NCBI GenBank assembly: GCA_017459805.1 | Contig: JAFUCE010000049.1 | Location: 2,464 to 66,463 of the forward strand | Length of the DNA: 64,000 nt | Reading direction: 5' to 3' | Source: Eggerthellaceae bacterium | GTDB lineage: Bacteria > Actinomycetota > Coriobacteriia > Coriobacteriales > Eggerthellaceae | Shown here: positions 239 through 11,558 of the stretch, piece after piece | Position numbering within the stretch: position 1 is the stretch's first letter | Layout: each line of letters starts with the position of its first letter | Translations under genes and position numbers: made by a program | Notes under the pieces: model-generated | What the model was told of the DNA's origin: nothing | The model's database searches: none | Seen by the model: only the letters and a program-made list of their open reading frames with translations

Positions 239-506
239 GTTCTCTCCTTAGAACGTTGAGGCCCTTGTTATGCGCGCCCCTGTTTACGATGTGCCTATTG
301 TACGCCTGAATAACACTAAACATGCTTACAAATATGTAACGATTTTTTGTACCCTCCTGCGCAAAAAATTGAAACAATTCCTGCAGCAAAGGCCAAAATG
401 CCGCTTAAGTCGCAGCGAGACAAAAATTCTGTGTGGGTTACATGCGTGGCGCGAAATGGCTTTATACTGCTTAAGTAAGCGAATACCATCGCGAAAGGCA
501 ATTCTT

Positions 507-1931
507 ATGGGCGGATTTTTTGGGGCAGCTTCCAAGCGTGACGTAGTCATGGACGTCTTCTTTGGTGTCGATTACCATTCCCACCTGGGCACACGCCGTG
601 CGGGGCTCACCTTTACGAGCGGCACGGGCGGCTTCAACAAGGAAATACACTCTATCGAAAACACCCCCTTCCGCACCCGTTTTGAGGAAGACATTGCGCG
701 CTTCGAAGGCACGAGTGGCATCGGTTGTATTTCCGATACGGATCCCCAGCCCCTGCTTATCAGAAGTCACCTCGGTGTGTTTGCCATAACCACGGTGGGC
801 GCCATCAACAACGCCAAGGAACTGGCCGACGAATATCTGGCCGATAAATCCACCCAGTTTATGGCACTCAGTTCTGGTGCCATTAATTCAACGGAACTGG
901 TTGCTGCGCTCATTAACGAAAAGGCAAGTTTTGTTGAAGGCATTCAGTTCGCACAGGAAAAAGTGGAGGGCTCGCTCACGCTGCTCATCATGCCTGAAAA
1001 TGGCGAGATTATTGCCGCGCGCGACAAGCAAGGCCGCCTTCCCGTGCTCATTGGTAAGGATGAAGACGGCTTTTGCATTTCCTTTGAAAGCTTTGCTTAC
1101 CACAAGCTGGGTTATGCAGACCACTACGAATTGGGCCCAGGCGAAATTGTGCGCATAAGTCCTGATGGCCTCGAAAGCCTTGCGCCCGCAAGCGACAACT
1201 TAAAAATATGCGCCTTCCTGTGGGTGTACTACGGCTACCCCAACTCAAACTATGAAGGCGTCAACGTGGAAGTCATGCGCTATCGAAATGGCGCTATTAT
1301 GGCACGCGACGAACAACACCGTGGCATCCTGCCCGAACTTGACTACGTCGCAGGTGTACCCGACTCTGGTATTCCGCACGCCATAGGCTATGCCACCGAA
1401 AGCATGGTGCCCTTTGCGCGCCCCTTCATTAAGTACACGCCCACGTGGCCGCGTTCCTTTATGCCAGGCAATCAAGACGTACGCCGCCGCGTGGCAACCA
1501 TGAAGCAGATTCCCGTACCCGAACTCATTACGGACAAGCGCCTCTTGTTCGTGGATGACAGCATCGTGCGCGGCACGCAATTGCAAAACACGGTGAACTT
1601 CCTCTATGAAAGCGGCGCCCGCGAAGTACATATGCGCAGCGCCTGCCCACCCATCATGTTCGGCTGCAAATACCTATCCTTCAGCCGCAGCCAAGATGAC
1701 ATGGAACTTATTGCGCGCCGCACAGTGCAGACACTCGAAGGTGACGAAGGCCAAAACCACCTGGACGAATACGCCGACCCCACCACCGAACGGGGGGCAT
1801 GCATGCTCAAAACCATCTGCGAAGAACTGGGCTTCGATTCACTTGCCTACCAAACCCTTCCTGGCATGCTCGAAGCCGTTGGCATTGACCCTGCCACCAT
1901 CTGCACCTATTGCTGGACCGGCAAAGAATAA
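507..1931 (+). CDS. amidophosphoribosyltransferase-like protein (class-II amidotransferase fold + PRTase domain) lacking the N-terminal nucleophile Cys
   Basis: Track ORF 270-1931. I chose the start at ATG 507 (MGGFFGAASKRDVVMDVFFGVDYHSHLGTRRAGL...). PRPP-binding loop LLFVDDSIVRGTQL. C-terminal Cys pairs (CPPIMFGCKY, CTYCW) resemble the Fe-S class of PurF. Confidence 0.8.
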   Translation: MGGFFGAASKRDVVMDVFFGVDYHSHLGTRRAGLTFTSGTGGFNKEIHSIENTPFRTRFEEDIARFEGTSGIGCISDTDPQPLLIRSHLGVFAITTVGAINNAKELADEYLADKSTQFMALSSGAINSTELVAALINEKASFVEGIQFAQEKVEGSLTLLIMPENGEIIAARDKQGRLPVLIGKDEDGFCISFESFAYHKLGYADHYELGPGEIVRISPDGLESLAPASDNLKICAFLWVYYGYPNSNYEGVNVEVMRYRNGAIMARDEQHRGILPELDYVAGVPDSGIPHAIGYATESMVPFARPFIKYTPTWPRSFMPGNQDVRRRVATMKQIPVPELITDKRLLFVDDSIVRGTQLQNTVNFLYESGAREVHMRSACPPIMFGCKYLSFSRSQDDMELIARRTVQTLEGDEGQNHLDEYADPTTERGACMLKTICEELGFDSLAYQTLPGMLEAVGIDPATICTYCWTGKE

Positions 1932-1959
1932 TCCCGCTGCTCTTCCAAACAGCGGGATT
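1930..1959. terminator. stem-loop between convergent genes (possible bidirectional terminator)
   Basis: AATCCCGCTG (1930-1939) and CAGCGGGATT (1950-1959) form a perfect 10-bp stem with a 10-nt loop, directly after the stop at 1929-1931. There is no clear U-tract. Confidence 0.5.
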
Positions 1960-1994
1960 GCATACAATCAAGCTTGTTGAAATCCGCAATTACC

Positions 1995-2594
1995 TTAGGC
2001 GGCCTGAGCAAGATCGGGGCCTGCCATAACGTCTGATTCGGTGGGTGCATCGAGTGCGGACCAGTCGGTCGGAACGCCTTCTTCACCTTCGACGTAGGTT
2101 TCGAGCCCGAACTGATAGGCAACGTTGTCAACGATAGCTTCGGTTATCAGGGTGTCCTGGCCAGCATAGTACACGCCATTTTCGTATTGAGCCCAATAGG
2201 TCGAAAAGTCATCAGCATTTTCGACGGTCGTGCCATCCGTGAAAGTAAAAGATTGGATGAAGCCATATTCGTTCAACTGATAAGCAGACAGGTCGCCGGC
2301 TTTTACCGCAGCGTCAAGCAAGTTAACGACCGTGCAGTCGTCGGCATAGGCATAGCTTTTATTCACCATGACCTGTGCCTTGCCCGCATCGTCAACGTTG
2401 ACGATTTGCAGGCTTGCCATACCTGATGCTGCAGGGGCTTCGCCCGCAGCCGAAGAAGCTTGCGCGCTTGCGGCAGTATCATCCGCAGCCGAAGAAGCAG
2501 ATGCCCCCGCCGTTGCTCCGCCCTGCGCACAGCCCGCCAGGGCCACACTCAGCGCGGCAGCAAAAAGAAATGTGAGTACTGTTTTCTTGTTCAT
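1995..2594 (-). CDS. secreted lipoprotein (possibly DUF4430-like domain, unverified)
   Basis: Track ORF 1995-2705. Start moved to ATG 2592-2594 (MNKKTVLTFLFAAALSVALAGC...), preceded by GGAAAGGTGG. Signal peptide with lipobox LAGC, an Ala/Ser-rich linker, then a ~130-aa globular domain. Confidence 0.65.
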   Translation of the reverse strand: MNKKTVLTFLFAAALSVALAGCAQGGATAGASASSAADDTAASAQASSAAGEAPAASGMASLQIVNVDDAGKAQVMVNKSYAYADDCTVVNLLDAAVKAGDLSAYQLNEYGFIQSFTFTDGTTVENADDFSTYWAQYENGVYYAGQDTLITEAIVDNVAYQFGLETYVEGEEGVPTDWSALDAPTESDVMAGPDLAQAA

Positions 2595-2845
2595 ACGAAC
2601 CACCTTTCCAGGGCCAATTCGAAAACAGGTGTTCCGACTTCGGGCTCGCGCGTGTGCTGCGGCCACCTTACGGTTACTGGTATAGCGCAGGATTTTCACC
2701 CGCATTTCCCTTTTGCGTTCGTACAGCCTTATTGCTGCTCGAATTAGCCAACGCAGCCATTATAGATGAAATGACAAATCCATAAGCGAGGCGCACCGTT
2801 TCCAGTGCGCCCAAAATGATAAATTGTACCTGGTTTAATTTATCG

Positions 2846-3601
2846 TTAGAAGCTTGTCCAACCTCCGTCAACGGGTAGGATAACGCCACTTACAAAACTG
2901 GACTGATCGCTTGCCAAATAGAGTGCCGCGTCCGCAATAGCCGTTGCAGGACCTGGGTCGGGCGAAAGCGCGATAACAGGGCTTACTTTGGTATAGCCCT
3001 CTACATTGGGCTGACCCATAGATGTAGCAATTTCAGTAGCAATGCTGCCAGGAGCAATAGCATTTACGCGAATACCGTCTTTAAGATACATGTAGGCAGT
3101 ACTGCGCGTCATAGCATTCACAGCAGCTTTGCTTGCTCCATAGACCACACCTGCAGCCTGGTGCTGTGCACCAATAGATGACACATTGATGATATTGCCA
3201 CCGGTGCCCTGCGAAAGGAAAACCTGGACAGCCTTGCGCATAGCCGCAAAGGGACCGTAGACATTTACTGCAAAGACCTTCTCATACTTTTCGTCAGTAG
3301 CGTCACCAATGGCAGCCATGTCATCCATAACGCCCGCATTGTTCACAAGCACGTCAAGCTTGCCAAATTCAGACACAGCGAAGTCAATCATACCTTCAAC
3401 GTCTTCAATATTAGACACATCACCTTCAAAAGCAAGCACCTTGCCAGCAGCGCCTTCCAGGCTCGTCACGAGTTCATCTAGGCGATCCTTGCGACGCGCT
3501 ACTGCCACAACAGAAGCTCCGTTTTGCACAAAGAGTTCAGTAATTGCCTTACCCATACCCGATGAAGCGCCTGTTACTACTACCGATTTTCCTGTAAGCA
3601 T
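2846..3601 (-). CDS. SDR-family oxidoreductase (classical short-chain dehydrogenase)
   Basis: TGASSGMGKA (TGxxxGxG), NNAG and YGASKAA (YxxxK) motifs. 251 aa. Strong RBS AAGGAGG upstream of ATG 3599-3601. Confidence 0.9.
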   Translation of the reverse strand: MLTGKSVVVTGASSGMGKAITELFVQNGASVVAVARRKDRLDELVTSLEGAAGKVLAFEGDVSNIEDVEGMIDFAVSEFGKLDVLVNNAGVMDDMAAIGDATDEKYEKVFAVNVYGPFAAMRKAVQVFLSQGTGGNIINVSSIGAQHQAAGVVYGASKAAVNAMTRSTAYMYLKDGIRVNAIAPGSIATEIATSMGQPNVEGYTKVSPVIALSPDPGPATAIADAALYLASDQSSFVSGVILPVDGGWTSF

Positions 3602-3714
3602 ATATCCTCCTTAGTACAAATATCTATTGCTTGTATTTCATGAAACAAGGTGAAGGTTTCCGATATGTTACAGAATTTGCTACATGACCAATACCTCGGT
3701 GAAAGGCTCTCAGC

Positions 3715-3749
3715 AAAAAAGGTGCATCCAAAACGAATACACCTTTTCA
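3715..3749 (-). terminator. rho-independent terminator after the SDR/GcvT-like operon
   Basis: On the minus strand AAAAGGTG-N15-CACCTTTT is followed by TTGCTG (U-tract), about 35 nt downstream of the stop at 3784. Confidence 0.65.
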
Positions 3750-3783
3750 TGAATCTTTTTTACTTATCAACAAGAACTAATGC

Positions 3784-4602
3784 CTAGAATGCTGTCCACC
3801 CACCATCGACGTCGAGCACGGCACCATTTACGTAATGTGCTTCATCACTAATAAGGTAGAGAATGGCATTAGCGATATCTTCAGGGAAGCCGGTTAAATT
3901 ATTGCCGTCTGCGTCCAAACCAAGCGCCACAGCACCGCGCACATTATAAAGTTCGTTACCTTCTTCATCCATAATTTCGCGGTCGGGCCACTTTTCCATT
4001 GCGTTACCCAAAATATCTGTAACGCACGCTCCAGGATTTACCACATTGGTGCGCACGTTACGGAACCTATAGCTGTGTGCCAGATTGCGCGCCAAACCTA
4101 GCACGGCGTGCTTCGAAGTAATATAAGCAGCACCCGCCGAAGAGCCTATTTCACCACCAACAGACCCAACAATAACTATGCTTGCTGGAAGCCCTTCATG
4201 GTCCCACAGCAGCGGTAAGCAGTCGCGGCACATGCGGAAGCACGAATTCACGTTTACGTCCATGACATAGTCGTAAAGTTCGTCGTCGGTTTTGTGTGCT
4301 GGGCACATAAGGTCTAACACACCAGCAATATAGAGAAGTGCATCCAGCTTACCAAATTCCTGGGTGGCATAATCTATGGCGGCCTGACGCACCGAAGCAT
4401 CGTTGACGTCGCCAGGAACAAAGTGCAACGTACCGGGGCCGCCCTCAAGACCTTCGTCTTCAATAAGTTCTTCCATGGCTTCTTCGTTGAGGTCCAGTAC
4501 CACTAAGTTAGCACCTTGCTTGTAAAGAGCAGTTACTGTTGCAGCACCCATACCGCACGCGCCACCCACAACTAATATATTGCGTCCTTCGTTTGTACTC
4601 AT
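3784..4602 (-). CDS. SDR-family oxidoreductase
   Basis: Track ORF 3784-4629. Start moved to ATG at 4600-4602 (MSTNEGRNILVVGGACGMGAA...), preceded by GGGAAGGGTGA. Rossmann motif GGACGMG and catalytic YITSKHA. Confidence 0.85.
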   Translation of the reverse strand: MSTNEGRNILVVGGACGMGAATVTALYKQGANLVVLDLNEEAMEELIEDEGLEGGPGTLHFVPGDVNDASVRQAAIDYATQEFGKLDALLYIAGVLDLMCPAHKTDDELYDYVMDVNVNSCFRMCRDCLPLLWDHEGLPASIVIVGSVGGEIGSSAGAAYITSKHAVLGLARNLAHSYRFRNVRTNVVNPGACVTDILGNAMEKWPDREIMDEEGNELYNVRGAVALGLDADGNNLTGFPEDIANAILYLISDEAHYVNGAVLDVDGGWTAF

Positions 4603-4619
4603 CTTTTCACCCTTCCCTA

Positions 4620-5612
4620 CTAACACCACTTCGGTTCTACTACAGTTGCAGGCGAGTCGTTCGGGCCAATAGTAACCTGAGTTCCAAGAGGCACCTTTTT
4701 CGCATCGACAATGCCAAAACCTATGTTCTTATCTACCGTATAGCCATAAATCATCTGCCTACAAATACCTACAGGTACACCACGCTTACGAATTATTTCG
4801 TTTTGGCCAATGTCTTCATAGCTTTCCCGTTCAATTTCTAAACCTACAAAGGCACGCGCAGGACCTTCAACAGCAGCTTCGAGAGCTTCTTTTCCCACAA
4901 AGTCTTTGTCCATATGAACAGACCAGCCTAAATTAGCTTCAAAGGGAGTAAGACCTTTGTAGTCCTGCCGCAGAGCAAGACCTTTTTCCATAGGAAGGGA
5001 ACGTACATACACCTCAAGCGTAGTAAGCCGTGGCGCACCATATTCACTAGCTGCTGCAGCAATAGCATTCGCTACCGCTTCACTATCTGTACGCGCACAG
5101 TACACCTCAAAACCAAGCTCACCAGTAAAGCCGCCTCGGTCAACCGTAACCGCAGCGCCGGCTAGTGTTGTTTCAAGAAGCTGGAAACGCTTTAGACCAT
5201 CCACCGAATCGGAAACAATTTTGTTCATAATGTCTGCAGACTTTGGCCCTTGAACTGCATACATATCGAATTCTTGGGTGCGGTCGCTATATTCAACAGC
5301 AAATGCGTTTTTGTGACTGTCGAACCAAGCACACATCTGCGGACCGTACAAAGTTGAAAGCCACCAGGTGTCTTCGGTTTTATGCATAACAACCAAGTCG
5401 TCGATTATGCCACCCTCTTCATCGAGCATGGTGGTGTAGCGCCCCTGCCCAACTGGTGTGCCAGCTATCTTGTTAACCAGAACCCAGTCAAGAAATTTTT
5501 CAGCATCGGCACCACTCAGTTCAACTAAATCGTGTGTCCAGCGAAACCAACCAGCATTCGTACGCACGGCTTCAGATTCCGCGCGAGCAACTTTGTCTTC
5601 TTTAAACAGCAT
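4620..5612 (-). CDS. aminomethyltransferase (GcvT) family folate-binding protein, N-terminally short (330 aa)
   Basis: GcvT-like blocks are present: ...ELSGADAEKFLDWVLVNKI..GQGRYTTMLDEEGGIIDDLVV..., YAVQGPKS, DRGGFTGELGFEVY, TPFEANLGWSV. RBS GGAGG lies 5 nt before the ATG. Only 11 nt separate it from the upstream gene. Confidence 0.8.
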   Translation of the reverse strand: MLFKEDKVARAESEAVRTNAGWFRWTHDLVELSGADAEKFLDWVLVNKIAGTPVGQGRYTTMLDEEGGIIDDLVVMHKTEDTWWLSTLYGPQMCAWFDSHKNAFAVEYSDRTQEFDMYAVQGPKSADIMNKIVSDSVDGLKRFQLLETTLAGAAVTVDRGGFTGELGFEVYCARTDSEAVANAIAAAASEYGAPRLTTLEVYVRSLPMEKGLALRQDYKGLTPFEANLGWSVHMDKDFVGKEALEAAVEGPARAFVGLEIERESYEDIGQNEIIRKRGVPVGICRQMIYGYTVDKNIGFGIVDAKKVPLGTQVTIGPNDSPATVVEPKWC

Positions 5613-5623
5613 TGTTAAACCTC

Positions 5624-6853
5624 CTACAGTGCGCGGTCGTCAATCTTGCGGCCAACAGTAATAATGAAATCGTCGTCATCTTCATCAATCCATACCGACC
5701 ACTCAGGCGATACAAGTGTGTGACACGCGCCATTCCACTGCGCTTCATAACCAAGTGTTATTTCGTCAAGCGGGGCCATTTCAAAACGCCCCGTGAAGGT
5801 ATCTTGGTCAACACGAATTTCAACACCTTCCCCGTCGAATGCTTCCCATTCAAACGGGACAAGCTGACAACCCAACATGGCGCCAATATAAGCACCCATT
5901 ACGCGCGGATCGTTGTCGCCAATTTCGCGGGGAATTTCCAACCAGTTACGCAAACCTTCACGAGCAAAGGGGTCTATAAAGGAATTCTTGCCAGCCGTTG
6001 AAAAGACTATTTTTAGTAGGCGCTCAAATTCTTCGTCGTCGTCGGCCATGTCGCGAATAGCAATAAGCGGGAAGCTTATAGACCAAACCCAACCCATCTG
6101 GGCAACCCAGTTGTATTGCCACTCTAAAGAGTTTTCTTCGCCAAAGGCGTTGGTATATTGCCCGCTACGAAGACCTTGTGCGTGCTTCACACGGCGCTCG
6201 GGTGGCGTGTCATGTACGGGGTCGTGCGCAGCACCACGGTGATCAAGCCACCCTTGTGGTTCTAGCCCATAATGGTCCAAACGCTCTGCTACCACACGGC
6301 AATGCGGGTTACCGCAACCGCGTGCTTCGCACATATTTAACTGAACGTCATTGGTTATAGCACCGTGCTCTCCCCCGGCGGCAATGTCGAAATTGGCCGT
6401 AAACATACCGGTTGTCATATTGCACATTTCGGAACCAACAATATCCCATGGACACGTATCGAGTTCCTTTTCAACACGATTTTCTGTAAATTGAATAACG
6501 CGACCGGCCATATCTTCAGCTTCGTCACCATAGTCGCCCCAAATTGCACCAATCCACGCTGAACGCTTCACCAATTCTGGAATATTCCACTCGTCATAAA
6601 AAGCATTGAGGTATTCATGCAGCTCGTCTTCGCCACCAGCACAAGCAGCGCAGTTCATCATATTGGCAATTTCGGTTATTTTTTCGGTTCTGTCTTCCCA
6701 GCTGTCATTTAAAACACGCATAAGTTGAAAAATATTTGCAGAAAAGCCTGCAATGGTACGCAGGCAATAACTGTATGCCTCTTTTTCAGGAATTATTTTG
6801 CCAAAGGCCGTTTCAACTCCTCTATGCGTACTTACATGATTAAGTATTGCCAT
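5624..6853 (-). CDS. hypothetical Cys-rich protein (409 aa), family not recognised
   Basis: Track ORF 5624-6880. Start moved to ATG 6851-6853 (MAILNHVSTHRG...), preceded by AAGGAG. Cys motifs CAACAGG, DTCPWD..EMC and CEARGCGNPHC. Acidic C-terminus. It is the first gene of the operon containing the GcvT-like and SDR genes. Confidence 0.7.
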   Translation of the reverse strand: MAILNHVSTHRGVETAFGKIIPEKEAYSYCLRTIAGFSANIFQLMRVLNDSWEDRTEKITEIANMMNCAACAGGEDELHEYLNAFYDEWNIPELVKRSAWIGAIWGDYGDEAEDMAGRVIQFTENRVEKELDTCPWDIVGSEMCNMTTGMFTANFDIAAGGEHGAITNDVQLNMCEARGCGNPHCRVVAERLDHYGLEPQGWLDHRGAAHDPVHDTPPERRVKHAQGLRSGQYTNAFGEENSLEWQYNWVAQMGWVWSISFPLIAIRDMADDDEEFERLLKIVFSTAGKNSFIDPFAREGLRNWLEIPREIGDNDPRVMGAYIGAMLGCQLVPFEWEAFDGEGVEIRVDQDTFTGRFEMAPLDEITLGYEAQWNGACHTLVSPEWSVWIDEDDDDFIITVGRKIDDRAL

Positions 6854-7076
6854 AACTTCTCCTTTCGTTATGCAAGACAAGGCCTAGCGAATTAGGCACC
6901 TTTGCAGTTTCGCGCGTTTTTAAAGGGCTGCCTAGCCAACACAGCGCTGTTAAAAATGAGCAAGATACCCTACAATTTAGTGGGTGCATACTACGCTATA
7001 ATTGATATATTTCAATGTAATTATTTCCTCAAGTGGCACTCTTGCAAAAACTTACCCGTATAAAAGGAGGGTAACC

Positions 7077-8621
7077 ATGCTTCTTTCAGCCGATATTCTT
7101 TTCGACAATCTGCCTGAAAGCTTCCACGCACGCATGGTGGGGCCACATAGTCTTACTCTTGACTTGCAACGTCCTGTTTTGTGCGAAGGGGATGAAAAAA
7201 GTTTTCTGTCAAATCATCTTTATTTCGCCCATGCCGACAGGCTTCCTGCACGTATCCATGCAGAAAAAGACGCTGTTGTAGTATGTGTAGGCAACAGTGC
7301 TCATCTTGCTCATTACCAGCAACGTTGCTGCGTAATTTCGCTTCCACGTGAAATTGATTTCTTTCATGCATTTAATGTTTTGCAAGGAATCTTCGACACC
7401 TTCGACACCTGGGAGTCCGACCTGGCTTCCATTCTTGAGCAAGACAGCGACATAACGCGTATGCTTACACGCAGTGAAAAACTATTTGGCAATGCCCTAT
7501 ATGCCATCGACGAAGATTTTCATATTTTAGGCGCGTCGCCCTTAGCCGCAGAATTACAGGAAAACAGCGCATTTACCAGCGAAGATGGCACTTCGCTGCG
7601 TCTTGGGTCTTTCGACCAATTTCTTGAACTGCATGATTTATCTATGGACGAACGTGAGCCCATGCTCATTTCACTACTTGACCAAAGCACTCTTAACTAC
7701 AACCTGCACGAAAATGAACAGTATCGAGGTTGTCTGACACTTCATTACAAACAGCGTCCTTATCGTGCAAGCGACAAACCCCTTCTTGCCTTCTTGGGGG
7801 AAATGGTGTTGCGTGCAGCCTTGCAACTATCGTCAAAAAATGTGGGCGAGCACCACTCTATTGCCCAAGCGCTCCAGGGGCTCGTTGAGGGTATTCCTCT
7901 TGATTCCACGTCACAGCAATTATTGGAAAAAGCTACTTCAGACGGTAATTTTATATGCATGCGCCTTAAACTATCAAATAAGCTTGAACAGATTCCTTTG
8001 GGCTATTTGCGCAACACGCTTGAAAGCACATTTTCTAAAAGCTCTGTCTTTGAATATCATCATAATTCGATTGTTGCCGTCATAGACCTAAACAATCTAG
8101 ATGCGGAAAACTATCTTGAAAATATATGCGAAAGCATTCAACCATTTACGGGCACTATGGGCATGAAAGCAGGACTTTCAGATACCTATAACAATCTTCT
8201 CTACACACATCATATGTTTTTGCAGGCAAATATAGCCCTGGATAACGGCGTTCTTTTTAGTCCACATGAAAACATTTTTCATTTTCACGACTTCGCGCTG
8301 CGCGAAATAATAATGAATGCCACGAATGAACTTCCTCTCGATCTGCTTATGCCTTCAGGGCTTCACAAGCTTATTGAACATGACCAGGCATCCGACACAA
8401 GCTATATCGAAACCTTGCGTACCTATCTTAACAACAACACAAGCATTGCAAAAACAGCAGCTCAGCTCTATGTTCATCGCTCAACTCTTATGGAAAGACT
8501 TAATCGCATAAAGCGGGAACTTGGCCTGGATCTAGACAGCCCAGATACACGACTACACCTTCAAATAATACTGAAAGCGCTCGAATTGCACGACAGTCTA
8601 ACGGCGCAAAGTGCAGAATAA
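7077..8621 (+). CDS. PucR-family transcriptional regulator
   Basis: Track ORF 7002-8621. Start moved to ATG 7077, preceded by AAAAGGAGGG. The C-terminal HTH TAAQLYVHRSTLMERLNRIKRELGLDLDSPDTRLHLQIILKAL is typical of the PucR C-terminal domain. Transcribed divergently from the 5624-6853 operon. Confidence 0.85.
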   Translation: MLLSADILFDNLPESFHARMVGPHSLTLDLQRPVLCEGDEKSFLSNHLYFAHADRLPARIHAEKDAVVVCVGNSAHLAHYQQRCCVISLPREIDFFHAFNVLQGIFDTFDTWESDLASILEQDSDITRMLTRSEKLFGNALYAIDEDFHILGASPLAAELQENSAFTSEDGTSLRLGSFDQFLELHDLSMDEREPMLISLLDQSTLNYNLHENEQYRGCLTLHYKQRPYRASDKPLLAFLGEMVLRAALQLSSKNVGEHHSIAQALQGLVEGIPLDSTSQQLLEKATSDGNFICMRLKLSNKLEQIPLGYLRNTLESTFSKSSVFEYHHNSIVAVIDLNNLDAENYLENICESIQPFTGTMGMKAGLSDTYNNLLYTHHMFLQANIALDNGVLFSPHENIFHFHDFALREIIMNATNELPLDLLMPSGLHKLIEHDQASDTSYIETLRTYLNNNTSIAKTAAQLYVHRSTLMERLNRIKRELGLDLDSPDTRLHLQIILKALELHDSLTAQSAE

Positions 8622-8644
8622 AAAACGGCCGGACATGCCGGCCG
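8620..8644 (-). terminator. rho-independent terminator between convergent genes
   Basis: CGGCCGG (8626-8632) and CCGGCCG (8638-8644) form the stem. On the minus strand it is followed by TTTTTT (8620-8625). Confidence 0.65.
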
Positions 8645-8665
8645 CTACGAACAGAGCTCAGGGTT

Positions 8666-8881
8666 TTAATCGCCAAGCGCCTTAAGGCGTTCATCGATAG
8701 CATCAAGATTGTCTGCTAATTCCTTAGCCTGAGGGAAGCTTGCCAACTTGCGCAAGGTCAGACCCATAACCATTTTCATCTGAGGGTCGGTAGTAAAGCC
8801 AGGTGAATATTCGCTAATAATAGCAGCGGCTTCCGGGTTTTTTGCCAAAACTTTGCACTTGTCGTCAACTGAAAGACCCAT
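8666..8881 (-). CDS. small hypothetical protein (71 aa)
   Basis: Track ORF 8666-8926. Start moved to ATG 8879-8881 (MGLSVDDKCKVLAKNPEAAAII...), preceded by AAAAGGAGAAC. No family recognised. Confidence 0.5.
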   Translation of the reverse strand: MGLSVDDKCKVLAKNPEAAAIISEYSPGFTTDPQMKMVMGLTLRKLASFPQAKELADNLDAIDERLKALGD

Positions 8882-9042: not shown

Positions 9043-9612
9043 CTAGCAGCGTATAATGCGCGTTTCAGTTACTACTATTCCAACGGAAAGGTCGTGGGAT
9101 TCAAGTGCGGGTACCGTATCGCTCAGCTGCGCTGTGCGGCACAGCCCTACCGATGTGCCAGAAAAGCCTGCCAAGAAGCTGTCGTAGAATCCCCCACCGT
9201 AACCCATGCGGAAACCCTGCGCGTCAAAACTTAAGCCGGGTACCAGGCAAAGGGCATGCACAAACTGTGCGGGGTCAATCTCGTAGCTGGGATCTTCGGG
9301 CGGCTCTTCCACCCCAAGCGAGCTAAGGACCAAACCGTCGAAGGAGTCGACCTTATACCATTTCATATCTCGCGTACCTGGTACGCAACGCGGCAAGACG
9401 ACCGTCTTGCCCGCTGTCCAAGCAGCGCGAATAATGTCACGCGTTTCGATTTCGGCACCAAAGCTTAAGTATGGAAGCAGTAAATCGCACGCGGTAAATG
9501 CTGGCAAGGCCAACACACGCTCGGTAATAGCTGCATCAATGCGTGCACGCTCGTCTTCGGGAATTGCGGCACGCAGTTCCTTAAAGTGTTTGCGCCATTC
9601 TTGCTTATTCAT
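9043..9612 (-). CDS. 5-formyltetrahydrofolate cyclo-ligase
   Basis: Family pattern WRKHFKELRAAIPEDERARID..I..RV, ..VVLPRC.., EP...., PGLSFDAQGFRMGYGGGFYDSFL. 189 aa. Starts 8 nt after the upstream MFS gene stop. Confidence 0.85.
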   Translation of the reverse strand: MNKQEWRKHFKELRAAIPEDERARIDAAITERVLALPAFTACDLLLPYLSFGAEIETRDIIRAAWTAGKTVVLPRCVPGTRDMKWYKVDSFDGLVLSSLGVEEPPEDPSYEIDPAQFVHALCLVPGLSFDAQGFRMGYGGGFYDSFLAGFSGTSVGLCRTAQLSDTVPALESHDLSVGIVVTETRIIRC

Positions 9613-9620
9613 AAGCCCGC

Positions 9621-11558
9621 CTAGCGTACATAACGCTCTATCACATCCAGGGCAGCAATAATATTGCGCCGCGAAAGACTTCCCACCACACGCCCATCAC
9701 TGGTAACTGGCAACTTCTTGATGCGTTTTTCCGAAAGCAGCTTGAACGCATCTTCGGCTTCGGCACTTATCTCGATAGATTCCACACGCGTGGTAGCAAT
9801 ACGCATCACATCCAAGTCGAGCAAATCGCCCAAACGCTCGAGGAAGTCTTCACTTTCCACGAAGCGGAAATAGTTAAAACTATCTATATAGGCACCATCA
9901 GTCTTAGAAAGGTATTTCAAAATATCACCATCGGAAATGAAGCCACAAAGCTTGCCCGCTGCGTCCACAATAGGCAGACCGCTTGTTTCCGTTTCGCGCA
10001 AGAGCGCAATGGCATCGCGCACGCTCGCATCTGAACCCAACACCGGTGCCTGCGGGTTCATGACATCAGCCACGTACCACGGGCGGTCCACGCCAGGCAC
10101 TCCCGCAAGGTCAACCGAAGTACCCGCTTTGCCTTCCGAAGCGCCTGCAGCACCAGCTGTCTTTCGGTCGCGCACGAAGATAAAGATGGTCGCCGTTACC
10201 CCAAGTAGGATGACACACATACCCACAAAGGCAAGGTGAGTCCCCGTATTGGTGACTTCAACGGCGCTCGCCCCTGCAGGCGCGAAATGGGGCGCAAGAC
10301 CGGTAAGACTAACGATAAATGCCGTACCAAAAGCAACGCCTACCTGCATAAAAGTTGAATACACCGCATTGCCATGCTGAAGCACGCTATTGTCCAGCGA
10401 ATTCATGCCCCAGGTATCCATAGGAGTAATCAAAAACTGGATGCCGATGGAAAGCACGGTGTAGACCACAGCCACCCAAATGATGTTGGTGTCCACGCCA
10501 AAGAACACCACGGCAACTGACATGAGCGCCATCGTGCTTGATCCGCCCAGCACCAAACCACGCACCCCATAGCGGTCGAACAAGCGCCCTGCCAACAGGC
10601 TACATCCTGCCCCCAAGACTGCACCGGGCAGCATACTAAGCCCCGTAACCGTTGCGCTGTGTCCAAGCACATTCTGAATGTAAATTGGCAGCACAACGCC
10701 CGACCCAACCAAAGCAGCTTCAAGAAAAGCAACAATCAAAACCGTGGTGCGGAAGTTACGCGTGACAAGCGTTTGCACCCGCAGCACTGGCGTTTCCATA
10801 TGGAGCTGGCGATAGGTAAAGGCAGCCAACACCACCACACCGATTACAATCAGAACCACGGGAATGGCAATGTTTGCACTGCTCGTAGAAACCGAAATAC
10901 CATAAAGAAGGCTTACCATACCGAAAGCCATCAGCGCCACCGAAGGCAAGTCGAAAGGCACTTCTTCAAAGCCTTCGAAATTTTCAAGCGCCTTGTAAGC
11001 AAACAGCACAAGCCCCGCGGAAAGCACGGCCACAATAACAAAAAGGAAGCGCCAGCCCACGCTATCCACCAATACGCCCGAAAGGCTGGGGCCCACGGCG
11101 GGGGCAAAACTAATAATAAGGCTCACGATGCCCATGCCTGCCCCGCGGTGTTCACGCGGGAAAATAAGGAGCACGAGCGTAAATACCATAGGCATAACCA
11201 CACCCGTGGCAGAGGCCTGTAACATGCGCCCGAGCAACAAGAGGGGGAAATTCGGCGCGAGAGCTGCAACAGCACTCGCAAGTGCAAATAATGCAATGCC
11301 GCCCACAAACAACTTTCGCGTGGAAAAACGCCCCAGCAAGTACGCGTTTAAGGGAATGACCACGGCTTCAACCAGGGCATAACCGCTGGTCAACCATTGA
11401 ACAGTGGTCGCATTGACGTTCAAGTCCGCCATAATGGCAGGCAGGGCAGGCGAAAGCAGGGTCTGGTTAAGCACCACCAAAAGCGCGCCTATCATGAGCA
11501 CGACTATCATCATTTTTTGTTGGCGAGTTAAACCCACGTAAGCTCCATGCTTTAGCAC
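9621..11558 (-). CDS. MFS transporter (DHA2-like, ~14 TM) fused to a C-terminal CBS-domain pair
   Basis: The N-terminal two thirds are hydrophobic with the MFS N-terminus LTRQQKMMIVVLMIGALLVVLNQTLLSPALPAI. The C-terminal ~150 aa show tandem CBS-like modules (VMNPQAPVLGSDASVRDAIALLRETETSGLPIVD..., VMRIATTRVESI...IKKLPVTSDGRVVGSLSRRNII). The start is uncertain: GTG 11558, or GTG 11537 preceded by GGAG. Confidence 0.85.
   Translation of the reverse strand: MLKHGAYVGLTRQQKMMIVVLMIGALLVVLNQTLLSPALPAIMADLNVNATTVQWLTSGYALVEAVVIPLNAYLLGRFSTRKLFVGGIALFALASAVAALAPNFPLLLLGRMLQASATGVVMPMVFTLVLLIFPREHRGAGMGIVSLIISFAPAVGPSLSGVLVDSVGWRFLFVIVAVLSAGLVLFAYKALENFEGFEEVPFDLPSVALMAFGMVSLLYGISVSTSSANIAIPVVLIVIGVVVLAAFTYRQLHMETPVLRVQTLVTRNFRTTVLIVAFLEAALVGSGVVLPIYIQNVLGHSATVTGLSMLPGAVLGAGCSLLAGRLFDRYGVRGLVLGGSSTMALMSVAVVFFGVDTNIIWVAVVYTVLSIGIQFLITPMDTWGMNSLDNSVLQHGNAVYSTFMQVGVAFGTAFIVSLTGLAPHFAPAGASAVEVTNTGTHLAFVGMCVILLGVTATIFIFVRDRKTAGAAGASEGKAGTSVDLAGVPGVDRPWYVADVMNPQAPVLGSDASVRDAIALLRETETSGLPIVDAAGKLCGFISDGDILKYLSKTDGAYIDSFNYFRFVESEDFLERLGDLLDLDVMRIATTRVESIEISAEAEDAFKLLSEKRIKKLPVTSDGRVVGSLSRRNIIAALDVIERYVR

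Follow-up and report, generated by a model that had tools for sequence, protein, structure and literature searches.

Organization of the locus

The stretch of DNA analyzed here (the window; 64,000 nucleotides [nt] of contig JAFUCE010000049.1 from the Eggerthellaceae bacterium assembly GCA_017459805.1) carries a compact operon in which the gene for a 409-amino-acid (aa) protein of a new family is followed directly by genes for a short GcvT-like protein and a short-chain dehydrogenase/reductase (SDR), with a PucR-type regulator transcribed divergently. The open reading frames (ORFs) named in the initial annotation were all confirmed on their strands in the ORF list, as were the gaps of 11 nt (409-aa gene to GcvT-like gene) and 17 nt (GcvT-like gene to SDR1), and the gene calls of the public contig, which were made independently, concur. 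The description of a tightly packed operon with a divergent PucR-type regulator was likewise borne out, with Pfam HTH_30 present in the regulator, and the terminator placed at 3715-3749 proved to be real. A 71-aa gene (small71) had been missed, so that the unit is a five-gene cassette instead. The features of the region are as follows.

2846-3601, minus strand: SDR2, 251 aa, a classical SDR with its own ribosome-binding site
3716-3748, minus strand: intrinsic terminator at the operon end, a 14-bp stem (-18.2 kcal/mol; z = -4.7 versus shuffles) followed by a U-run
3784-4602, minus strand: SDR1, 272 aa, a classical SDR and the final operon gene
4620-5612, minus strand: GcvT-like protein, 330 aa, N-terminally short, aminomethyltransferase-like, of a family that binds tetrahydrofolate (THF)
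5624-6853, minus strand: 409-aa protein of a new family, predicted tandem V4R/Bet3/H-NOX-like domains
6854-7076, no strand: divergent intergenic control region between PucR and the operon, covered by an alignment of 12 related intergenic regions
6967-6985, no strand: candidate PucR operator in a conserved block, imperfect palindrome ACCCTACAATTTAGTGGGT
7077-8621, plus strand: PucR/CdaR-family regulator, 514 aa, divergent from the operon
8624-8646, minus strand: likely terminator between the 3' ends of small71 and PucR, a GC-rich hairpin with a T-run (in the terminator scan, nine pairs, seven of them G-C, and then TTTTATT)
8666-8881, minus strand: small71, 71 aa, a conserved cassette member convergent with PucR
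9043-9612, minus strand: 5-formyl-THF cyclo-ligase (Pfam 5-FTHF_cyc-lig)

Conservation and distribution of the cassette

The recurrence of this arrangement is far beyond chance. The window proteins were compared by tblastn with 86 loci, which were gathered from exact-protein look-ups and from a scan of 185,579 species genomes; the scan, which relied on two peptide patterns and missed divergent members, gave approximately 171 loci. The gene order (the 71-aa gene, the oppositely oriented PucR gene, and then the 409-aa, GcvT-like, and SDR genes in the orientation of the first) was kept in every fetched locus that was long enough, and the same order recurred in approximately 90 loci from two phyla. 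The short GcvT-like gene lay directly after the 409-aa gene in all 82 loci with enough downstream sequence, and the four loci without a GcvT-like match all end within approximately 100 nt of the 409-aa gene. The co-occurrence of these two genes, which had been proposed as a check, and the conserved synteny expected from it were thus both found, also at 24-32% identity, where distant 409-aa homologs still lie directly upstream of a short GcvT-like gene. In one such locus (L087, 32% identity), the GcvT-like gene is followed by SDR and PucR genes; in another (L090, 25%), an alpha/beta-hydrolase gene (2600-3424) is inserted between the GcvT-like gene and the SDR; and in a third (L091, 24%), the 409-aa/GcvT-like pair lies under a LysR regulator. 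The most distant member (L092, 22%) has no GcvT-like gene in its 3.3 kb and is flanked by transporters of the major facilitator superfamily (MFS)/GPH type, including a GPH-type transporter with an RFRPW motif (1426-3284).

The carriers are gut and rumen anaerobes of the Coriobacteriia (Eggerthellaceae, Olsenella/Atopobiaceae, Enorma, Adlercreutzia, and Parvibacter) and the Clostridia (Blautia, Dorea, Merdimonas, Lachnoclostridium, Oscillospiraceae, Faecousia, and Christensenellaceae), and the cassette is widespread among members of both classes from the livestock, poultry, rodent, and human gut. Between the phyla, the 409-aa, GcvT-like, and 71-aa proteins share approximately 59%, 55%, and 57% identity, respectively, and PucR only approximately 36%, indicating that the 71-aa protein evolves like the enzymes and unlike the regulator. 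With regard to a plasmid origin, no tblastn match was obtained in 72,556 plasmids (PLSDB). A defense-system reading was rejected, the PADLOC search having given nothing useful.

A tandem V4R-type fold in the 409-aa protein

The 409-aa protein, which is 100% identical to a protein of a rumen-type Eggerthellaceae metagenome-assembled genome, gave no Pfam, NCBIfam, or PDB sequence match, with a PDB phmmer search and a PDB profile search included. Its homologs group into 269 clusters at 90% identity and 132 at 50%, none of which is named; the latter number is all that an exhaustive profile search recovered from 1.84 billion proteins. The protein had been described as unrecognized, and it indeed matched no characterized family.

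Structure prediction was more informative for the N-terminal half than for the whole. The full-length AlphaFold2 model had a mean predicted local distance difference test score (pLDDT) of 69 and weak Foldseek matches (E ≥ 6e-3); the model of residues 1-206, built from a 32-sequence alignment, had a pLDDT of 86 and a predicted TM-score (pTM) of 0.78. Searched with Foldseek against the PDB, as had been suggested, this N-domain aligned over 175-190 columns with a TM-score of approximately 0.45-0.55 and a probability of 1.0, its best match being TRAPP Bet3 (E, 4e-4), alongside the phenol-sensing domains of PoxR (5fru, 5frz, and 5frw), MopR (5kbe and 5kbh), and DmpR (6iy8) at 2e-3 to 1e-2, as well as H-NOX proteins. 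The predicted model combines a helical subdomain with a four-stranded sheet, as is characteristic of the V4R/Bet3/H-NOX fold. Since the N-terminal and C-terminal halves also align with each other in a profile-profile comparison (hhalign; 95.9% probability; E = 5e-9; 133 columns), the 409-aa protein is, on the modeled fold, an internal tandem duplication of a V4R/Bet3/H-NOX-type ligand-binding domain, in which the putative metal ligands and the charged invariant residues are kept in the first (N-terminal) copy only.

In a comparison of 23 family members, the most distant of them at 22% identity, invariance was seen at R55, D110, E111, G117, R126, E128, K129, E130, C134, G140, C144, E176, C185, E190, P308, D315, R317, and F339. 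Conservation mostly of Asp, Glu, Arg, and Lys suggests a polar or charged ligand, or a protein interface, over a purely hydrophobic pocket. In DmpR, the V4R scaffold holds phenol together with a zinc ion bound by Cys151, Glu172, Cys177, and Cys185 (PMC7264223). C144 of the 409-aa protein sits in the helix equivalent to that of DmpR, and E176, C180, and C185 follow in a beta-hairpin (C144...E176-x3-C180-x4-C185), giving the same ligand order with different spacing. Because this order matches the DmpR zinc site, the CEARGCGNPHC motif is most simply explained, by analogy, as a V4R-type metal site with predicted Cys/Glu/Cys/Cys ligands. An Fe-S cluster in the motif is the less likely reading, as only three Cys and one Glu are invariant and their order fits the V4R zinc site. 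C175 and C180 of the motif are not invariant in the 23 members, and C134 (in the CPWD motif) is an extra invariant Cys outside the V4R zinc-site pattern.

The initial annotation had proposed that this protein could be the substrate-binding or activating partner in a new THF-dependent pathway of C1 removal or catabolism. The predicted ligand-binding fold is consistent with the binding role; the Cys motif, which resembles a V4R zinc site described only as a bound ion in DmpR, need not be a redox or activating center. The acidic tail noted earlier is instead an acidic loop (EDDDD) between the last two strands, close to the C terminus. Separately, a 1125-aa protein (P0238) contains 14 separate stretches that match positions 179-231 of the 409-aa profile, the region of the Cys-motif hairpin; the matches may reflect a protein made of repeated copies of this hairpin or be an artifact of low complexity.

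The GcvT-like protein lacks an H-protein context

The GcvT-like protein carries both GCV_T (PF01571; 2.4e-47) and GCV_T_C (PF08669; 3.4e-10), yet it stays below the NCBIfam GcvT models, with 171 bits versus a cutoff of 300 (NF001567) and 147 versus 235.85 (TIGR00528). Other family models, all below their cutoffs, scored lower: the C-domain of trimethylamine N-oxide demethylase (Tdm) at 137 bits, SoxA at 110, DmdA at 110 (cutoff, 410), DesA at 85 (800), and LigM at 70 (580). This ranking (GcvT > Tdm > SoxA, DmdA > DesA > LigM), used here as a proxy for a phylogeny of the GcvT family, was reproduced by the PDB matches, where Tdm, DMGDH, DMGO, and SoxA gave values of 1e-19 to 4e-25. The catalytic Asp is kept, the IDDL of our protein aligning with the IDDL of the Escherichia coli T-protein (D97), where PDB entry 3a8k reads IDNL.

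The truncated N terminus is real, although it falls short by approximately 25 residues and not by the 30-40 claimed at first: residues 10-13 of the query align with T-protein residues 36-37. A stop codon lies immediately 5' of the start, and 80 distinct orthologs are 329-341 aa in length with L2, D6, and D72 invariant. Given this uniform length and the invariant L2 and D6, the short N terminus is native. A full-length T-protein has an N-terminal segment of about 35 residues ahead of the xAVRxxxGxFDxSH motif, and in E. coli this segment is implicated in binding the H-protein. With an E. coli query, no GcvH-like ORF was found in 95 sequences comprising 1.36 Mb of loci (±10 kb) plus the window, and GCV_H and GDC-P were absent from the 25 neighbor families listed of the 130 found. 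The GcvT-like gene thus stands without a gcvH/gcvP context, as the initial annotation implied. A query for MetF, likewise an E. coli sequence, gave no similar ORF at E ≤ 1 in any locus (1.36 Mb, ±10 kb).

Folate genes around the cassette

The folate link turned out to be stronger than could be seen from the window. Genes for Fhs, FchA (FTCD_C), FolD, a formate channel, FolE, and FolC adjoin the module in 8-12 loci. In a Pfam census of 121 flanking ORFs in 21 lineage-representative loci, the only recurrent families were extra SDRs (6), FTHFS (4), FTCD_C (4), FolD (4), formate/nitrite transporters (2), and GTP cyclohydrolase I (2). The Olsenella loci run from the cassette into Fhs, FchA, FolD, FolE, a FocA-type channel, and FolC; Fhs, FchA, and FolD lie upstream of the cassette in L005 and L006; and the same three flank it in a complete Christensenellaceae chromosome (OY762278.1; L075). 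In the window, the cyclo-ligase gene is present near the cassette as first noted, but it is not a conserved member of the unit, lying within 7 kb of the 409-aa gene in only two other loci.

Other neighbors occur in one or a few loci. A THF riboswitch (78 bits) is found at 3244-3338 on the minus strand of L075, beside the FolD-FchA-Fhs genes. Four loci of different lineages (L046; L055, at 3417-4304 on the minus strand; L060; and L065) encode, at a distance of 3-7 kb from the cassette, a PanB-family ketopantoate hydroxymethyltransferase, which is also a methylene-THF enzyme. In L005 (11138-17221) and L006 (7902-13985), an MFS sugar transporter and glycoside hydrolases of families GH3 and GH2 come directly after the SDR. 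Single downstream genes that were checked as partners (GGDEF, TetR, M20 peptidase, CAAX protease, and phosphatidylserine decarboxylase) were unrelated.

SDR genes

SDR1 (adh_short, PF00106; 4e-42) has borneol dehydrogenase, BacC, glucose 1-dehydrogenase, and levodione reductase as its nearest PDB relatives (approximately 1e-27 to 1e-31), and SDR2, preceded by the ribosome-binding site AAGGAGG, matches adh_short_C2 (2.1e-56) and adh_short (2.2e-51). The Gly-rich and YxxxK motifs read GGACGMG and YITSK in SDR1 and GASSGMG and YGASK in SDR2. SDR1 probably prefers NAD, judging from VVLDLN after beta2, and SDR2 probably prefers NADP (VAVARR). The window carries both SDR lineages, which share approximately 33% identity and are separated by the operon terminator. 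Elsewhere, one or the other occupies the operon slot: SDR1 orthologs (56-93% identity) hold it in rumen Coriobacteriia and in L005/L006, and the SDR2 type fills it in Clostridia and some Eggerthellaceae, SDR2 being 48-59% identical to the in-operon SDR of L001-L004 and L056-L086, to which SDR1 is only 30-35% identical. One or two further SDR genes lie downstream in L008, L014, L036, L062, L065, L075, L082, and L084.

The regulator, its candidate operator, and the 71-aa protein

The regulator matches HTH_30 (PF13556; 2.1e-20) and, weakly, GGDEF_2, and its NCBIfam matches to CdaR, AdeR, and PmfR are weak (27-38 bits versus cutoffs of 600-800). Its start, given earlier as 7002, was moved: ATG 7077, and not TTG 7002, is most likely the start, as it is preceded by the ribosome-binding site AAGGAGGG and is also used in the 514-aa public gene call. 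Homolog alignments begin at about residue 25 of the ORF that starts at 7002. Alignment of the 12 intergenic regions revealed one conserved block besides a ribosome-binding site. Most rumen Coriobacteriia loci have the palindrome CCCT[AG]CA-N3-TG[TC]AGGG 115-180 nt upstream of the 409-aa gene, and it also occurs in L005/L006, L062, L064, and L074/L076, which include several Clostridia loci. On the strength of this pattern, we propose its counterpart at 6967-6985 as a candidate PucR operator.

Wherever a locus extends far enough, the gene for the 71-aa protein is found upstream of PucR (53-91% identity). Its conserved motif (S.D.K...L.K...A....PGF.T.PQMK.V..LT.RKL.SFPQ) includes no conserved Cys, it has no Pfam match at E ≤ 10, and its homologs form only 85 clusters, which are all annotated as hypothetical and come from the taxa that carry the module. 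A biotinyl- or lipoyl-type carrier (with "MKM") and a carrier resembling acyl carrier protein were both rejected by inference, as the sequence looks helical, has no Gly/Val-rich barrel pattern, and has the motif misplaced. The idea that it supplies the T-protein N terminus in trans was dropped, as no similarity was seen.

Other neighbors of the cassette in the window

In the window alone, small71 is situated 161 nt downstream of the cyclo-ligase gene on the same strand, and an MFS transporter with a C-terminal CBS pair (9621-11558, minus strand) lies upstream of the cyclo-ligase gene. Co-transcription is possible in this contig; a weak promoter-like site is present at 8959-8931. On the other side, an AdoCbl-II (cobalamin) riboswitch at 2622-2719 on the minus strand (40.9 bits versus a gathering score of 36.5) lies between SDR2 and the next gene, which encodes a 199-aa predicted lipoprotein (1995-2594, minus strand) with no Pfam match. 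The lipoprotein may be a B12-regulated surface or uptake protein and was not seen beside the cassette in the other loci. Riboswitch control of the operon was discarded, as the B12 riboswitch of the window belongs to that next gene. Further out, a 553-aa ORF (270-1931, plus strand) resembles glutamine amidotransferases/amidophosphoribosyltransferases, with a weak GATase_7 match on the public gene call. Its true start is probably further in, given an unusual N-terminal extension of approximately 90 residues in the longest ORF.

A proposed C1 transferase and its alternatives

Drawing on sequence, predicted fold, and gene context for all functional statements, we favor, at a little below an even chance, a PucR-activated catabolic cassette that removes a one-carbon (C1) unit from a small gut metabolite and passes it to THF. 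The best reading of its core is a two-component, H-protein-independent, THF-dependent C1 transferase that handles a formaldehyde-level C1 unit, and the 71-aa protein may be a third component. The constant pairing of the 409-aa and GcvT-like genes, which persists under PucR or LysR control, argues for such a unit. In the proposed scheme, the 409-aa protein would bind the substrate in its charged N-domain, beside the putative Cys/Glu/Cys/Cys metal site, and present it to the GcvT-like enzyme, thereby replacing the lipoyl-H-protein or the fused oxidase or Zn/Fe domain of DMGDH, SoxA, MABO, and Tdm. The GcvT-like protein would use its retained Asp to form 5,10-methylene-THF, which places the C1 unit at the formaldehyde oxidation level. 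The SDR could be responsible for an NAD(P)-linked conversion of the substrate or of the product left after C1 removal, creating a carbonyl or iminium group so that the C1 unit leaves; alternatively, it might reoxidize NAD(P)H from FolD. FolD and FchA would then oxidize methylene-THF to 10-formyl-THF, from which formate-THF ligase (Fhs) would yield formate and ATP, with formate exiting through the FocA-type channel. The analysis itself shows which genes are present and in what order, the modeled fold and the duplication of the 409-aa protein, its conserved residues, and the folate genes nearby; from these we infer that the two proteins form a complex, that a metal is bound, which way the flux runs, that transfer occurs at the methylene level, what the SDR and the 71-aa protein do, and where the operator lies.

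The PucR-family activator PmfR controls purU-mabO-folD, in which MABO demethylates gamma-N-methylaminobutyrate to give methylene-THF (PMC3891541). The nearest working analogy to our cassette is the family of demethylating enzymes with a fused GcvT-like domain, with MABO as the closest case, and the window regulator weakly matches the PmfR model. As for the substrate, the hints are weak: glycoside hydrolases and transporters occur in two contexts and an esterase in a single one, there are several SDRs, the pocket is charged, and a dedicated transporter is lacking. The glycosidase and transporter neighbors (L005/L006 and L092) may mean that the substrate arrives as a glycoside. Speculatively, candidates include N-methyl or aminomethyl amines, methylenedioxy or methoxy aromatics released from glycosides, hydroxymethyl groups cleaved by oxidation and retro-aldol reaction, and formaldehyde itself. 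A bolder version of the proposal is possible, though we hold it to be unlikely: a lipoate- and H-protein-independent methylene transferase in which a duplicated V4R metalloprotein, possibly with the 71-aa protein, replaces the P- and H-proteins or a fused oxidase, allowing strictly anaerobic gut and rumen bacteria to cleave a formaldehyde-level C1 unit from an abundant dietary or host compound and to gain energy through formyl-THF synthetase. If true, this would amount to a C1 fermentation of a new kind, one that supplies the gut with formate from a new source.

Several observations weigh against the catabolic C1 transferase. V4R-type domains are best known for sensing or scaffolding and not for work as parts of enzymes, Foldseek gave modest E-values (4e-4 to 1e-2), and 10 family members matched no Pfam family, V4R (PF02830) included, even at E ≤ 10. 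C180, usually a Cys, is replaced in some distant members, which makes the metal site uncertain. Two unrelated SDR lineages in the same slot suggest that the SDR step may be loosely specified, and the census of 21 loci showed no conserved transporter or further catabolic enzyme, so that a complete pathway is not apparent. The reversible Fhs, FolD, and FchA sit with FolE and FolC in Olsenella, an arrangement that fits C1 supply as well as C1 removal, and the absence of MetF and GcvH rests on searches with E. coli queries within ±10 kb.

The initial annotation had drawn an analogy to LigM and DmdA, which would mean methyl transfer to 5-methyl-THF. In such an improbable LigM/DesA/DmdA-type demethylase, an O-, S-, or N-methyl group would be activated at the zinc site of the 409-aa protein, much as Zn in MtaB activates its methyl substrate, and N5 of THF on the GcvT-like protein would accept this group to give 5-methyl-THF. 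The GcvT family does contain stand-alone methyl transferases, and the DmdA, DesA, and LigM models were matched. Relatives of the V4R-type fold of the partner bind phenolics, and the glycoside hydrolases and transporters near the L005/L006 module and the L092 homolog would fit plant methoxylated aglycones. However, those three models scored lowest in the family and far under their cutoffs, the T-protein Asp is retained, charged residues and not hydrophobic ones predominate among those conserved in the 409-aa pocket, and MetF (methylene-THF reductase), which would recycle methyl-THF, is missing from all loci, those with adjoining Fhs, FchA, and FolD genes included. The score ranking nearer to GcvT, Tdm, DMGDH, and SoxA, the kept Asp, the lack of MetF, and the adjoining FolD/FchA/Fhs genes are why we prefer methylene over methyl transfer and rank the LigM/DmdA analogy as the weaker option, although they are not proof.

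A slim chance remains with an assimilatory or biosynthetic module, in which formate-derived methylene-THF would hydroxymethylate, or together with the SDR reductively modify, an acceptor on the 409-aa protein. The reversibility of Fhs, FolD, FchA, and the T-protein reaction itself is compatible with this direction, as are the Olsenella module, with FolE, FolC, and a formate channel able to import, and the PanB-family hydroxymethyltransferase near four loci. Against it, the divergent PucR-type activator and the patchy two-phylum spread, which resembles horizontal gene transfer, are more typical of inducible catabolism, for which PmfR is a precedent, and no conserved biosynthetic partner genes were found.

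Slimmer still is the prospect of detoxification of formaldehyde or other reactive aldehydes in anaerobes without glutathione or mycothiol, where Cys134 would capture formaldehyde for transfer to THF by the GcvT-like protein, with the SDR acting on related aldehydes. The lack of a conserved transporter suits a freely diffusing substrate, Cys134 is the extra invariant Cys outside the V4R zinc pattern, the formate route adjoins the module, and trapping formaldehyde equivalents on THF is the role of the GcvT-like domains in DMGDH, SoxA, and Tdm. Yet a general stress function should be found more often than at approximately 171 loci among 185,579 species genomes, handling a C1 aldehyde would hardly seem to call for a ligand-binding protein that is large and duplicated, THF condenses with formaldehyde spontaneously, and a PucR-type regulator is presumably unlike the known formaldehyde sensors FrmR, HxlR, and NmlR. 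Finally, that the 409-aa protein is a sensor or co-regulator acting with PucR, as V4R domains act in DmpR and XylR, while the GcvT-like protein and the SDR work alone, is very improbable: its closest bacterial structural relatives are all effector-sensing domains, but it has no DNA-binding or output domain, its gene is 11 nt from the GcvT-like gene, the pair persists when the regulator is a LysR protein or is relocated, and its conservation between the phyla (approximately 59%) is like that of the enzymes and not that of the regulator (approximately 36%).

Comparison with known systems

GcvT-family enzymes are the main cobalamin-independent route by which substrate-bound C1 units reach folate. 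To our knowledge, the characterized members all depend on a lipoyl-H-protein, are fused to an oxidase or metallo-domain, or bind their substrate themselves. A separate V4R-type partner would, if true, be a new architecture for GcvT chemistry and the first enzymatic role for an unannotated protein family. No description of the cassette or of its two proteins of new type was found in full-text literature searches, and the database names of the 409-aa and 71-aa homologs are all "hypothetical protein." The cassette may mark an unrecognized transformation of a dietary or host molecule and, lying beside the folate branch that produces formate, an unrecognized flux from substrate to formate on which methanogens and acetogens feed. 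Carriers are available in culture (Olsenella sp. KH3B4, kh2p3, and An270, Tractidigestivibacter scatoligenes, Lachnoclostridium sp. An131, and Coriobacteriales OH1046), which brings the question within direct reach of experiment.

The closest family by score is GcvT (EC 2.1.2.10), with which our protein shares GCV_T and GCV_T_C, the catalytic Asp, and presumably the 5,10-methylene-THF product. It differs in an N terminus approximately 25 residues shorter, in scores of 147-171 bits versus cutoffs of 236-300, and in its setting, which is never near gcvH/gcvP in the loci and instead has the V4R-like 409-aa gene before it and an SDR after it. In DMGDH and the sarcosine enzymes, MABO, and Tdm, as proposed here, the work is divided between a module that frees a C1 unit at the formaldehyde level and a GcvT-like module that captures this unit on THF, and MABO is moreover encoded with folD under the PucR-family PmfR. 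In our cassette, however, the partner is a separate polypeptide of unrelated predicted fold, neither a fused FAD oxidase nor a DUF1989 domain, and the redox partner would be an NAD(P)-dependent SDR, which would suit strict anaerobes.

LigM, DesA, DmdA, SesA, and BrdA are GcvT-family enzymes that transfer C1 units to THF and catabolize methylated or methylenedioxy compounds from plants and algae (PMC5547118). Membership of the GcvT family is what they share with the window protein; they are stand-alone enzymes (approximately 370-470 aa) in which substrate binding takes place on the enzyme itself, and the product of LigM, DesA, and DmdA is 5-methyl-THF. By contrast, the window protein has 330 aa, gives its lowest scores against the LigM/DesA/DmdA group, has an obligate partner gene, and has no MetF nearby. 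With the V4R domains of DmpR, PoxR, MopR, and XylR, the 409-aa protein shares the predicted N-domain fold and the order of the putative metal ligands, Cys in a helix and then Glu/Cys/Cys in a hairpin. It departs from them in its tandem duplication, its charged residues, its place in an enzyme operon, and the lack of both a Pfam V4R match and an AAA+ or DNA-binding output. Taken together, C1 transfer to THF by the GcvT family is already known, whereas novelty lies in a V4R-type partner that is both separate and obligate, in a clade of truncated T-proteins, in the conserved 71-aa protein, and in the coupling to an SDR.

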